A stretch of 64,000 bases of DNA from an uncultured Nitrososphaerales archaeon (GTDB lineage Archaea; Thermoproteota; Nitrososphaeria; Nitrososphaerales; Nitrososphaeraceae): NCBI GenBank assembly GCA_963695855.1, contig CAVOHZ010000010.1, positions 1,344,001-1,408,000 of the forward strand, written 5' to 3'. Below are positions 9,714 to 56,570 of the stretch, one piece after another (the first letter of the stretch is position 1; the number at the start of each line of letters is the position of its first letter). The position numbers were made by a program, and so were the translations under genes. The notes beneath the pieces are model-generated. The model was given only the letters and a program-made list of their open reading frames with translations, ran no database searches and was not told where the DNA came from.

Positions 9714-10067
9714 TTGTGGTTGGCAAGTCCGCTGGTTAGAAAAAAAGTTAAAGCTTATCATCTTCACGAACCAGAAGATGCTTTAGTATCAGCAATGATC
9801 AACGACAAAAAAATAACAAATGCAAAACAATCAAGATCATTTGTCATAGGAGATATGGATGAAAAGGATATCTCCTATCTACAAAAACAAGGTCTAATAG
9901 TTCAAGTAATAGAAGATGATCCAATCGTTAAGACTCCTGGGACAGATGCAAAGAAGCTTTGTAATATAGATCTTGATCAAAATCTGAATAATGAGATTCA
10001 ATTTGCAGAAAATCTAAAAATACTTTTAATCTCCTTGGGTATTGCCTTTTGTTTCTGGTGCTTTTAA
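9714..10067 (+). pseudogene. Possible N-terminal (propeptide) fragment of an S8 peptidase
   Basis: KVKAYHLHE...SFVIGDMDEKDISYLQKQGLIVQ; no catalytic domain follows. Confidence 0.35.
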
Positions 10068-10329
10068 TGCATACAAGAAATTACCTATGGCATTATTTTC
10101 TACATTGTGGTCAAACTGACTATCTGTTTGATTTTTTTGCTCTTGCTGCACCAATATTACAATATTATTATTGGTATGGGCCTAAATAAAATGACATTTT
10201 TGACACGGGCTCGGAGGTGTGTGAATTGTTTTTGACACAATATTTTTGGCCCATATGCTATCTTTGATTTATAATATCATGAGTTGATAAATAATAATAT
10301 TCTAAATAATCGTCCAAAATATTGATACG

Positions 10330-10500
10330 TTAATGGGTAGAAACAGAACAAAAACCAGAATGAGCTTCAAGCCATGCATAAAGATCCCTTATAACAGACT
10401 GCTGTATTGGGCCTATACCAGTTTGCCATTGAGATGAGGGATAGAATACATGACCAAGATTTGGATATGTGATTAGCATATGATCAGGATGTCTTACATC
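10330..10500 (-). pseudogene. Alpha/beta hydrolase C-terminal fragment
   Basis: HPDHMLITYPNLGHVF (catalytic His region); coding similarity stops at the GGCTCTG element boundary at 10501. Confidence 0.65.
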
Positions 10501-10505
10501 GGCTC

Positions 10506-10844
10506 TGACTATATGAAAATCTTTATTGGTACCAATCCCTTCTGTATTCAGGCTAGGTTCAAAGTTAACATACTCCGTACGAGAGTGAGGCTCTGACTGA
10601 ACCAATATCCGAGCGGCTATACTACTACCTCATAAAGAAGGTGAATAGATGTTTGCCGCCTGTTAGCCGACATAAAAAAAAGAAAATAAAATAAAAAAAG
10701 AATGAAAAAAAGCAAAATCAAGGGAAAGTAACAAGTATAGCATATGCTATTTTAGATAATTTTTAATATGATGAATTATAATAGAATATTACGCTTAACA
10801 GGAACATAAGGATGACCTGATACAGATAGAGATTTTCATAGATG
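10506..10844 (+). mobile_element. Non-autonomous IS1111/IS110-type mini element (RNA-only), copy 1
   Basis: TG-actat-ATGAAAATCT (10513-10522) ... AGATTTTCAT (10830-10839)-aga-TG; near-identical copy at 63616-63950 with different outer flanks; removing it restores GGCTCTGTTAA. Confidence 0.85.
10550..10670 (+). ncRNA. Predicted bridge/seekRNA of the mini element
   Basis: Two stem-internal loop-hairpin modules closed by ggcta/tagcc; loop strands match the target flanks (aagttaaca, gaggctctg) and the element right end (gaatagatg). Confidence 0.72.
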
Positions 10845-10924
10845 TTAACTTAACGAAAGATCTAACTATATGTGAAGAGTCAAGTGAATCCAAATCAGAC
10901 AGTAAGTTATGCTCTAACAGTAGT

Positions 10925-12008
10925 ATGATGTATGTAGGAATGGATCTCCATAAGAACTACTTACAGATTGGAGTAATGGATGAGAAAGGAAAAGTAATCA
11001 GCAATAGCAAAATAGAGAATGATATACAACAGATAGGGGATTTTTTGACCAGATCAATAAAATTAATAAAAATGATGATGGTAAGAACTGCTGCCACAAT
11101 CATCAAAAGATAGTAATGGAATCATCATGTGTGTATGGTATAACTATACGAATACTGGTCTGAAGAAAGAAATCTGGATGTAATACTATCAAATCCAATT
11201 AAAACAAGAGCAATTGGATCAGCAAAAAAAATAAAGACAGATAAACTTGATGCAGTAAAACTATCTAGTTTACTGAGAGGGGGATTCATATCAGAATGTT
11301 ATGTACCTAATAAAAAAACTATGGAACTACTTGATGAGCTGGTAAGACATAGAATTGCACTGGTGATGAGAATGAGAACCAGATTGAAGAACAAGATCCA
11401 TGGGATAATGCATATGAAAGGAATGCGAATTAATAGTAACAATAATAGTACTGCTCGCTTCACAATAGAGTATATCAATAAACTACAAGCATTGAACGAT
11501 TATAGAATTGATGCTTACATTCGTTTGATAGACTCATTTGATTATGAGATTAAACAGGTATCCAAGCAGATTCCTGCTGTGTATGCAAAAGAAGATATTG
11601 CAAGATTATTGGTGACAATACCTGGTATTAGATACCATATATTCTGCTCTTCTTCTTCTAATAAGTGAAATTGGCGATATTAACAGATTTACAGATTCAA
11701 ACCATCTTTGTTTGTTCGTATTCGGGATTGATACCATCCATCAACTCATAGTTCTTTCTGGTGGAATAACATATCATGGTAACATAACTAAAACAGGCAG
11801 TAGCAAATATCTAAGATGGATAATGGCTGAATGCATGCGTTCTCATATCAGCAGAACTCAACCTGACAGTAACATAACAAAATTCTGTTATAGACTGGCA
11901 AAAAAGAAGGGAAGTGCTAAAGCAACAGTTGCAGCATCATCCAAACTGTTAAAGATATATAGTCTACTGGATAATGAAAGAGAAGAGAGAATATACACAT
12001 ACAAATAA
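10925..12008 (+). pseudogene. IS110-family DEDD transposase, multiple frameshifts
   Basis: YVGMDLHK, KTDKLDA, LVTIPGI, SGGITYHGNITKTGS..YLRW spread over several frames. Confidence 0.92.
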
Positions 12009-12084
12009 CAACAATAACAATGATAAAATCGAAAGAAAGATTTAAAATTTATTATTATAGTTAAGGTGATAACAAATTATTATT

Positions 12085-12200
12085 ACAGTCACAAGACATC
12101 TATTGAGGGAAAGCCTCGTCGATCTAACTGTGGTAACTCCTTAACAAATGGATAAAGACGGTAATGAGGGAAAGCCTCGCATGGATAAGTATCCGTTTCT
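12085..12200 (+). ncRNA. Predicted bridge/seekRNA of the IS1111 element
   Basis: Two GAGG-GAAAG-CCTC hairpins (12105, 12166), each followed by a 9-mer ending in the TA core: gtcgatcTA (left flank gatcTA) and gcatggaTA (right end catggaTA). Confidence 0.65.
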
Positions 12201-12333
12201 ACAAATAATGAGGAGATGAATAAATAAAAAAATAACCATGATGAATTAAGATAAATATTTAATAATACTTCACATGGATATAGCTGTGAATGTCTTGCTT
12301 GTTTTTTATTTTATGATAGTATTCTTAAATTTA

Positions 12334-13238
12334 GAGCCTATCCCAAAAATAGATAGGAATATAGCTCGTTTGTTTCTTATCATATCTGATAATGTTTAAG
12401 AGTAAAAAGTATGTTAGAACAATTACACGCATTCCAGATGATCTATGGAATGAAATTAAAAATATTTTGCCAGATGAAAAGCCAGAGAACACTATAGGTC
12501 GTCCAATTGTTCCATATAGAAAAGTGTTTGATGGTATCATGTTTATCCTGAGGACTGGATCTCAGTGGAAAATGTTACCAATATAATATGGTTCTGGTTC
12601 TACATGCCATAGAAGATTTCAGGAATGGAGAGAATTAGGTATTTTCGATATACTATGGACTAGCTTACTAAAAATATATGATAACAAAAAAGGAATCAAA
12701 TGGTCATGGCAATCACTCGATAGTATATCTGTAAAATCGCCTTTAGGGGGGGGGGCGAAGACAGGCCATAATCCTACTGACAGAAGCAAATTAGGCAGTA
12801 AAAGACATATTCTTACAGATAAAGATGGTATTCCATTGTCTGCTGTTATAACATCTGCCAATACTCATGATGTTACTGTTGCAATTGATACAGTTGACAG
12901 CACAGTTATCAAAAGACCATCATTATTATCCAAACCAAAGCATAACCAAATGAAACAGAATCTGTGCCTTGATAAAGCATATCATTCCAAAGAAGTAGAA
13001 CAAGAAATTATCAAAAGGGGATACATACCACATATACGACACAGAAGAGAAGAAGAAGAAAGAATATTTCATAGAAAACATCCCACAAGAAGATAGGTAG
13101 TTGAGAGAACTAATTCATGGCCTAACAGATTCAGGAAATTATTTACAAGGTATGAAAAGAAGGATAAAGACTATCTTGGTCTTGTACAATTAGCAAATAG
13201 CATAATTGTTTATAGGAGGATAATTTTGGGATAGGCTC
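12334..13238 (+). mobile_element. IS5-family (IS427/IS1031-like) element with pseudogenised transposase
   Basis: TIRs gagcctatcccaaaa / ttttgggataggctc; TTA direct repeat; RTGSQWKMLP, LCLDKAY, VERTNSW motifs interrupted by stops. Confidence 0.9.
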
Positions 13239-14264
13239 TTAATTATTCTTCCAATCATTTACAAGCAAGTCCATAGCTCCATCATTTATGATTGTATTGT
13301 AATTTGAAGGATTTCGATAACCCATGTAACCACAATGGTTATCTCCCCATGTTGGAGATAAATCAAATTCTAGACAGTCCCAAAGATAATTTGCATCTGC
13401 ATCATACAAATAAGGGGGTATCTCATATCTAACGTTATACTCTGAATAATAATTTTCGGCTGGTGTTCGTATACCAGATTCACTTCCTTTTAAGCCCAAT
13501 GCCGAATCTGGTTCAGCTTCAGGATAAGATCTTTGTAACAGATTGTCTTCTGGATTATATAAATTATAGAATTTTTCCACAACTTTTTCTATAGGTTTAC
13601 CAGAACATGATAATTGAGGTTGATTAGATATACAATCTGATGCGTCAATGGATACTTGCTCATCATCAATGGCAGCACCTAAAAGATGAATCGATGAAAT
13701 TCTAAAATTTAATAGAGGCTCATTAAATAGACTGTTGATTGCTGAAAAAGTAACTCGTGAACCAAGTGAATGAGCGATAATTCTCAAATCAGTATCAGAG
13801 CATTTACCTTTGAAATCTAAAATAAATTGTGCAAGTTTCTTGCCATTTGCATTCGCTATTTTCTTACCTTCTTCCCATCCTCCAGTAAAATCAAAAAATG
13901 AAGGAGGAGCTAAATTAGAATCCCATGTGAAGCTAATAACAGGTATTAAATAGTTCTTATCTCTAAGAACTAAATTTATTCTATCAGATTCTTCTTGAGC
14001 TTGATCTTCATCACGTAAAAATCCATGAACATATATTACGGATTCACCAGGACAATTTCCTATCTGTAATCCTGGAACATTAATAGCGTTATATTCATTT
14101 ATTGTATAATCCGGTTTTAACTCTCCACTATCAAGATCAAAGTGATTACGTGTAGAAACCTTAATAGAAGATTCTTGTGAAATAGATGAATCCAAAGGCA
14201 GATTAATAAATATTGATGCGGCCATTAATATAATACATATTAAAACGATATTATTGTTTATCAT
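13239..14264 (-). CDS. Secreted alpha/beta-hydrolase-fold protein (DUF726/DUF900-like)
   Basis: Signal-like N-terminus, YVHGF, IAHSLG, HLLGAA, HCGY. Confidence 0.75.
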   Translation of the reverse strand: MINNNIVLICIILMAASIFINLPLDSSISQESSIKVSTRNHFDLDSGELKPDYTINEYNAINVPGLQIGNCPGESVIYVHGFLRDEDQAQEESDRINLVLRDKNYLIPVISFTWDSNLAPPSFFDFTGGWEEGKKIANANGKKLAQFILDFKGKCSDTDLRIIAHSLGSRVTFSAINSLFNEPLLNFRISSIHLLGAAIDDEQVSIDASDCISNQPQLSCSGKPIEKVVEKFYNLYNPEDNLLQRSYPEAEPDSALGLKGSESGIRTPAENYYSEYNVRYEIPPYLYDADANYLWDCLEFDLSPTWGDNHCGYMGYRNPSNYNTIINDGAMDLLVNDWKNN

Positions 14265-56179: not shown

Positions 56180-56570
56180 ATTCTTTAGTAGTTTTAAATA
56201 TTTTTTCTAATTCACTATAGAAACTCTTTATTTGCACCAGACTTTGACAGAGATGCTTGCCATTGTTTTGCTACTGTCTTAATAGTTAGATCTACTGTCT
56301 TAATAGTTAGATCTACTGCCTTGTCAATTGTACTTCCCCACTCTCTTTCAATCTGCTTTTTCAATTTCTCTACATGTACTTCTGTAAGTGCAGTAAAGAA
56401 TGATCTTTCTAAAAGTGATTTTGCTTCACCAATAGGGTCATCACTACAGCATGGACTACTATTACTTGTTTTATTAGTAGTCGTTTGACAATATTCATTT
56501 GCAACATTATTATTTCCTGAACTTCTTTGTGTCTCTACACATTCACAATTTGATTCACATTGATTTTATT
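56180..56570 (-). pseudogene. Cys-rich hypothetical gene remnant with an in-frame 21-bp duplication
   Basis: PCCSDDPIGEAKSLLERSFFTALTEVHVEKLKKQIEREWG...VDLTIKT-VDLTIKT; duplication at 56271-56312. Confidence 0.55.

Follow-up and report, generated by a model that had tools for sequence, protein, structure and literature searches.

Organization of the locus

Between two TA dinucleotides at 10863-64 and 12279-80 of the window (the whole 64,000-nt stretch analysed here, from a 3.55-Mb genome with ~31% G+C) lies an element of 1414 bp (10865-12278), in which a short left end, a disrupted transposase gene and a long non-coding right end follow one another with the TA core on both sides. The ends, spacers, two identical hairpins and 9-mer matches reported in a first-pass annotation of this DNA were all recovered where it had placed them. 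The features, all on the forward (+) strand, are as follows.

10859-10864, +: left target flank GATC plus core TA (left core copy); same junction position seen at 6 occupied genomic IS6-type repeats
10865-10869, +: left-end spacer ACTAT, from the core to the left subterminal inverted repeat; proposed partner of the loop-2 5' strand
10870-10877, +: left subterminal inverted repeat ATGTGAAG; ATGTGAA conserved among homologs
10903-10911, +: same-sense copy of the loop-2 5' strand, AGACAGTAA, within the left end; conserved and co-varying across the family
10925-12008, +: DEDD/IS110-family transposase pseudogene; frame order 1 to 3 to 1 to 2 to 3, with in-frame stops
12059-12200, +: predicted bridge RNA (seekRNA) scaffold; covariance model R1, 94.4 bits, E 5e-20
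12094-12103, +: loop 1 (putatively target-binding) 5' strand AGACATCTAT, the right-target guide; its reverse complement matches the right flank
12104-12118, +: hairpin 1, UGAGG-GAAAG-CCUCG plus a closing U.G pair (RNAalifold, R1 alignment)
12119-12128, +: loop 1 3' strand TCGATCTAAC, the left-target guide; equals GATC plus core TA plus left-end AC
12155-12164, +: loop 2 (putatively donor-binding) 5' strand AAGACGGTAA, the right-donor guide; discontiguous pairing with the left end
12165-12179, +: hairpin 2, of the same sequence as hairpin 1 (RNAalifold, R1 alignment)
12180-12189, +: loop 2 3' strand CATGGATAAG, the left-donor guide; equals right end CATGGA plus core TA plus A
12268-12275, +: right subterminal inverted repeat CTTCACAT, from the sequence
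12276-12280, +: right-end spacer GGA plus core TA (right core copy), from the sequence
12281-12293, +: right target flank TAGCTGTGAATGT, carrying on the IS6-type terminal repeat, as compared with empty genomic copies

The subterminal inverted repeats ATGTGAAG/CTTCACAT (8 bp, inset by 5 and 3 nt from the core) are conserved in homologs and fall within the 7-17 bp of the IS1111 group. The left end spans 60 nt before the ATG and the right end ~270 nt after the stop, so that the long non-coding region and its RNA lie downstream of the transposase gene, as in that group. The core TA is found at both junctions and in both loop 3' strands, as the common core dinucleotide of the IS110 family; right junctions of homologs carry TA in 22/24 cases and CA in 2/24.

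When aligned by tblastn with an intact homolog of 346 aa (L028), the window transposase covers residues 3-340 in three frames, with several frameshifts and in-frame stops, in agreement with the earlier description of the gene as broken. The GLVPSTHSSGG region is damaged in the pseudogene, and Pfam retrieved from it a PF01548 fragment below the cut-off (E=5.3e-4, 20.2 bits) and PF02371 above it (26 bits). The intact L028 scores 88.1 bits with PF01548 and 88.5 bits with PF02371, the DEDD (RuvC-like) and Tnp domains of the IS110 family. Three homologs with intact transposases (335, 337 and 346 aa) contain GLVPSTHSSGG and both Pfam domains, matching the ~330-350 aa and the GL-P----S(t)G motif of the IS1111 group. 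Just right of the element, at 12392-13096, fragments of an IS4/IS5-type transposase are spread across several short ORFs (DUF4096, 50.9 bits; DDE_Tnp_1, 22.8 bits, just below the cut-off).

Target site and neighbouring mini element

A genome search showed that GGTGCTGTTAACTTAAGGAAAGAGCTA-TAGCTGTGAA… is present in ~20 uninterrupted copies. It forms the terminal repeat of a multi-copy element, which has an ORF of 219 aa that matches DDE_Tnp_IS240 (IS6 family, 38.5 bits). Empty sites read …GATC-TA-TAGCTGT…, and because the window right flank TAGCTGTGAATGT continues this repeat, found empty elsewhere, the boundaries proposed earlier are right. The copies of the element share ~22 nt left of the TA, and a longer element with its left end 22 nt further left was considered and ruled out, the ~20 empty copies showing that this segment belongs to the target repeat. 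Six copies of the IS6-type repeat are occupied versus ~20 empty, with one orientation throughout and an identical CTA preceding every insertion.

The repeat at the locus, CGGCTC-TG-TTAACTTAACGAAAGATC-TA-TAGCTGTGAATGT, is present in three pieces (10500-10507, 10845-10864 and 12281-12293), split by two nested insertions. The second of these is a mini element of 335 bp (10508-10842) inserted at TG, 22 nt upstream in the same repeat. Its flanks are TG, its spacers ACTAT and, on the right, AGA, and its subterminal repeats ATGAAAATC/GATTTTCAT; GGCTCTGAC, found in its left part, repeats the left junction of the mini element. It derives by internal deletion from a different IS110-family element with core TG, whose intact 359-aa copies are located at C8:~49k and C10:~930k and whose transposase is 37% identical to L028. 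Searches with the RNA covariance model R1 (see below) gave no match in the loci of this parent IS or in those of the intact IS110-family transposases. With other subterminal repeats, another core, a distant transposase and intact source copies of its own, the mini element is unlikely to have been helped by the 1414-bp element, as had been suspected. The nesting of mobile elements is thus explained by one IS6-type repeat offering two fixed positions to two differently programmed elements.

Fold and distribution of the RNA

The 3' RNA comprises two internal loops with strands of ~10-11 nt, each closed by the hairpin GAGGGAAAGCCTC. Loop 1 follows the stem CACA/TGTG and is formed by strands AGACATCTAT and TCGATCTAAC, and loop 2 follows the stem GGATA/TATCC and is formed by AAGACGGTAA and CATGGATAAG. 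The hairpin sequence GAGGGAAAGCCTC occurs at 12105-12117 and 12166-12178 and nowhere else in the window, versus 0.00 copies expected from shuffles; exact copies genome-wide number 3, the third within a sister element on contig C3.

In the RNAalifold consensus of 11 homolog tails, the outer stem and stem 2 lead into loop 1 and its hairpin, and stem 3 leads into loop 2 and its hairpin. The covariance model R1 was built from the same 11 tails without the window RNA, because MAFFT misaligned the latter (a 16-nt insertion between the outer stems), and the window copy was then aligned to R1. The minimum free energy fold of the single sequence was a different structure with weak support (z -2.72) and was replaced by the alignment-based fold.

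R1 recovered the window copy with 94.4 bits and 28 more matches among the collected loci. In the R1 alignment (28 distinct sequences), 96.6% of cells pair, versus 36-47% with the partners slid, a comparison that favours the structure in being fitted to the model, although the independent RNAalifold fold agrees. Both-side changes were observed in 13/27 pairs, and the covariation score was reached by 0/500 shuffles. These compensatory changes are spread over five helices and support the two-loop architecture proposed in the first-pass annotation; a structured RNA with internal loops in the non-coding end is characteristic of the IS110 family. A scan of 10000-13500 against Rfam 15 at E<=1 returned no family matches, and no curated family covers the RNA.

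In a class-wide sample, R1 detected the RNA in 21/151 genomes and 5/12 families, with the largest copy numbers in a 2.0-Mb genome (22) and a 1.7-Mb genome (20). At the DNA level, 47 of the 201 genomes searched within the same family gave matches, a tally that counts one unpublished genome (G035) on which no claim depends. Among the homologs from this search, the tail region is ~80-88% conserved even where the rest of the element is at 66-70%. The SSU rRNA of the host scores 1490.8 bits on the archaeal model, and a protein-guided scan of public genomes found the nearest relatives in Nitrososphaeraceae and Nitrosopumilaceae MAGs, as anticipated from the archaeal assignment made earlier. Bacterial matches in the same scan were at 24-38% identity, except for one of 61% on a 1.3-kb contig in a Campylobacterales bin.

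Guide matches in the window and sister copies

gtcgatcTAact, which comes after hairpin 1, agrees with the left junction GATCTAACT in 9/9 positions, and after hairpin 2, gcatggaTAa repeats the right-end CATGGATA together with the A expected next in a circle junction. The upstream strands had been said to match poorly, which did not hold once they were read in the other sense: the loop-1 5' strand ACATCTAT, reverse-complemented to ATAGATGT, agrees in 7/8 positions with ATAGCTGT, the core A followed by the right flank, and that of the sister copy matches the usual target in 8/8. The 5' strands of both loops are guides too when read in this sense. In one fixed register, the window right-donor guide pairs discontiguously with the core T and left-end positions 1-3, 5 and 7 (5 Watson-Crick and 1 wobble of 10).

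Single-copy matching of 9-mers is weak evidence, because such 9-mers are not rare in this A+T-rich window: GATCTAACT has 7 window matches versus 0.64 expected, 5 of them unrelated, and CATGGATAA has 1 versus 1.26 expected. Part of the excess is accounted for by a 21-nt tandem duplication with GATCTAACTATTAAGACAGTA at 56284-56313, unrelated to the element. The case for the guides rests on the comparison of homologs and not on single-copy matches.

Co-variation of guides and flanks across homologs

The tracking of flanks and ends by the loop 9-mers, which the first-pass annotation had put forward as the decisive comparison, was examined in 24 elements, several of them with intact transposases of 335-346 aa. 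These fall into 18 classes by distinct guide or flank type; loop strands were taken from the R1 alignment and junctions were set from the subterminal repeats plus a fixed spacer, with some hand-corrected. Permutations were performed at the class level with one representative per class and, the classes being related by descent, the resulting counts are not exact probabilities.

The left-target guide (loop-1 3' strand) matched the 5 nt left of the core with a mean of 3.71 for cognate versus 1.35 for non-cognate pairs (21 elements, 15 classes). For the right-target guide (reverse-complemented loop-1 5' strand), compared with the core plus right flank over 9 nt, the corresponding values were 6.71 and 3.92 (24 elements, 18 classes), with 4 registers allowed equally for the controls. 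The left-donor guide (loop-2 3' strand) matched the 5 nt after the right repeat at 4.88 versus 3.91 (24 elements, 18 classes). In each of the three comparisons, 0/20000 permutations reached the observed sum. Loop strands are thus complementary to both target and donor strands and co-vary with them, as in the IS110 family. Some elements fit poorly, at or near the non-cognate level, at the right flank (L052, 4/9; L044, 3/9; L069, 5/9) or at the left flank (L042, 1/5; L073, 2/5; L069, 2/5).

Within Nitrososphaeraceae, both the loop-2 5' strand and the left end hardly vary. Contiguous pairing of this right-donor guide with left-end positions 1-5 or more occurs in the copies from Nitrosopumilaceae (AACCAT) and in L063 (GTCGTA), and the guide changes with the left-end tip (ACT/ACC/ACA/GTC). 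Beyond the core, the loop-1 3' strand extension AC equals left-end positions 1-2 in 20/22 elements, although the extension stays AC in L063 and AT in L069, whose left ends start with GT; the first base of the left-donor extension matches the right flank in 8/24. Extensions of 2-3 nt resembling the handshake-type guide extensions described in the accessible text of Hiraizumi et al. 2024 (PMC11208158) are therefore possible, with co-variation that we consider unconvincing.

Multi-copy intact relatives in a complete 2.0-Mb genome (G300, C1, loci L157-L176) follow the rule as well; four RNA types, totalling 22 copies, coexist there. Type 1 comprises 12 identical RNAs, whose guides are AACTA-TA and ATGTGAAAA and whose sites, TAAC(T/C)A-TA-TGTGAATAA, are the left end of sibling IS1111 elements: right flanks read tgtgaataa in 12/12 (8/9 versus guide ATGTGAAAA), and 9 left flanks end with TAAC(T/C)A versus guide AACTA. 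The reverse-complemented guide of type 4 reads TAATTACAA from the core on, and its 6 right flanks (TAATTACAA, …CAT, …CAG and …TAG) score from 9/9 to 7/9. Type 1 lies ~1.3 kb from type-4 RNAs at three places in this genome.

A copy of the right-donor guide in the left end

In every family member, the sequence of the loop-2 5' strand recurs in the same sense ~31-37 nt into the left end. This motif changes with the loop-2 5' strand across subfamilies (AGACGGTAA, AGACAGTAG, AGATGGTTGT, AGATGGCAA, AGATGGTAC, AGATAGCAT), with a cognate mean of 8.4/10 versus 6.1 for shuffled guides. By necessity it also forms an inverted repeat with the left-end tip; structure prediction yields a hairpin between the two in Nitrosopumilaceae-type copies and none in the window copy. 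The motif could serve donor recognition or transposase regulation, and no such same-sense left-end guide copy was found in the accessible text of the papers on IS621 and ISEc11.

The presence of one "guide" as DNA in the left end raises the question of whether the end and flank repeats act as DNA, for example as additional sites for protein binding or as remains of a duplicated end, with the hairpins serving as a terminator or 3'-UTR structure devoid of a guide role, for which the location of the region directly 3' of the transposase stop and its two G+C-rich hairpins could also be invoked. We regard this as highly improbable, since compensatory changes, present in five helices, point to selection for the RNA fold, and the flank-matching strands vary with each new target while the scaffold remains constant, unlike a relic or a protein site. 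Furthermore, one strand matches in sense and the other as its reverse complement, as expected for pairing to two DNA strands. A guide function of the RNA loops is the reading retained below.

State of the window copy

The host genome holds one other near-full copy of the element, the C3 sister (88-90% identical), and four truncated left ends. The sister copy is also decayed: it is split by a ~1 kb insertion, has 3-nt insertions in both loop-2 strands, and its right flank differs from the expected target. In the window copy, the right-target guide has drifted by one base from its own site. No intact enzyme of the subfamily was found in the host genome, where the intact IS110-family transposases (three types) are only 34-40% identical to the subfamily enzyme. 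Because the window transposase is a pseudogene and the only other near-full copy is also broken, the RNA of the window copy is without a cognate enzyme in this genome, and the window copy is probably a fossil and likely inactive.

The insertion in the sister copy (G000:C3:299143-300199, ~1 kb) has a 218-aa ORF, and its two ends hold repeated …ACATGGGTAACAC… motifs. Motifs like …ACATGGGTAACAC… flank homologs L031, L032 and L035, which suggests that these three target the ends of the ~1-kb IS seen inside the sister copy. Elsewhere in the genome, two identical 378-aa IS110-family transposase genes are arranged head to head, ~1.5 kb apart (G000:C10:288296-290358).

The RNA of this broken copy might still be used if the element were a guide-only, non-autonomous one that a different IS110-family transposase of the host mobilises in trans. 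Consistent with such use, the RNA region keeps its 94.4 bits on R1 and is ~95% conserved between the two copies, by a count from the alignment, versus 88-90% for the whole element; moreover, transposase-less mini derivatives that keep the RNA exist. One of these, L042 (G012:C18), is a 360-bp derivative in a congener, with an RNA of 124.4 bits and a right-target guide matching its flank in 9/9 positions, its left junction matching the guide in 1/5 with an uncertain left boundary; another case is the mini element next to the window copy, which belongs to a different IS type. Siddiquee et al. (PMC11187229) further note, in the accessible text, that a seekRNA is not necessarily restricted to very close transposases. 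We nevertheless judge mobilisation in trans improbable: the three candidate host enzymes are as distant as stated above, the lack of an R1 match in their loci indicates that their scaffolds differ, both genomic copies show drifting guides (the right-target mismatch in the window, the loop-2 insertions in the sister), and the genome retains no more than 2 near-full copies and 4 truncated left ends. The window copy is better regarded as a remnant that lost its enzyme.

Discussion

The interval 10865-12280 very probably represents an IS1111-type insertion sequence (IS110 family) that has decayed in a Nitrososphaeraceae-like archaeon, with a 3' non-coding end that encodes a bridge RNA (seekRNA) of ~125-140 nt with loop 1 for the target and loop 2 for the donor. 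All sequence features of the IS110 family and IS1111 group that we examined are present. The anatomy of the element, the compensatory changes in the RNA, the co-variation of guides and flanks, and the site- and orientation-specific insertion are directly established. RNA expression, protein binding, a circle intermediate and the recombination chemistry are inferred from the published work on IS621 and ISEc11, given that the guide geometry equals that published for IS1111 seekRNAs.

By analogy with those systems, a discrete RNA of ~125-140 nt would start near AGUUAAGG and end after UAUCC. In its outer stem GUUAAGG pairs with CCUUAAC, and a UGAGG...CCUCG hairpin closes each of the two internal loops. 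Loop 1 would specify the target and loop 2 the donor, formed when the ends of the excised circle are joined, and a tetramer of the DEDD/Tnp recombinase would exchange strands at the common TA core. The window copy was probably guided into the IS6-family terminal inverted repeat (…AAAGATC-TA-TAGCTGTGAA…), and its transposase was later lost to frameshifts.

On a wider and more tentative view, possible though in our opinion rather doubtful, the locus would be the fossil of an archaeal family of compact IS1111-type bridge recombinases that spans the class, still active elsewhere and set apart by four guides in two simple, near-identical loops, by habitual targeting of other IS ends (the IS6 repeat here; the subterminal repeat of sibling IS1111 elements in G300) and by the left-end guide copy. 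As a dead copy, the window locus has small direct biological importance. The RNA-guided recombination logic known since 2024 from bacterial IS110/IS1111 elements would extend to ammonia-oxidising archaea, where sequence comparison points to the same guide geometry. The family provides a comparative data set with at least 18 guide classes and genomes with ~20 copies, and the intact homologs (335-346 aa, ~125-nt RNA, simple target and donor loops) are candidate programmable recombinases from mesophilic archaea.

Comparison with known systems

Insertion into the ends of another mobile element has a parallel in the IS1111-family elements IS4321/IS5075 (Partridge and Hall 2003), which reportedly occupy one position in one orientation within the terminal inverted repeats of another transposon family. 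Unlike those Tn21-family repeats, the target here is an archaeal IS6-family terminal repeat.

Our literature search, by title and abstract, found no description of this archaeal family, although the supplementary ISfinder listings of PMC11208160 and PMC11187229 may include archaeal members. In the accessible text of Siddiquee et al. 2024 (PMC11187229), the non-coding region of IS1111 elements follows tnp, and the bottom-strand match is preceded on its 5' side by the top-strand match; the archaeal RNA has this order, its top-strand-complementary segment lying 5' of the bottom-strand-complementary one. As in the IS1111 seekRNA elements ISEc11, ISKpn4 and ISPa11, as presented there, the archaeal elements have subterminal inverted repeats with short extensions (5 nt left, 3 nt right), a long non-coding region downstream of tnp, the same segment order, insertion into repeated sequences, and a transposase (335-346 aa) with the GL-P----SG motif. 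Unlike these three, they reside in Nitrososphaeria, their transposase is distant from the bacterial ones, the family is described here from sequence, and the target and donor guides occupy two near-identical simple loops with the same closing hairpin. Durrant et al. 2024 (PMC11208160) predicted, according to the accessible text, right-end bridge RNAs in 93% of ISfinder IS1111 elements, many with donor guides in a multi-loop, whereas both archaeal guide pairs lie in simple loops.

With IS621, as described in the accessible parts of PMC11208160 and PMC11208158, the archaeal elements share a DEDD + Tnp recombinase and a first loop for the target and a second for the donor, each reading both DNA strands around a common core dinucleotide; the discontiguous right-donor guide of the window copy likewise recalls that reported for IS621 by Durrant et al. 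2024 (PMC11208160). The archaeal RNA lies in the right end and that of IS621 in the left, the core is TA versus CT, and the archaeal subterminal repeats are long (7-8 bp). The IS621 and IS1111-type geometries, so far as these sources describe them, coincide when the DNA is rotated by 180 degrees.
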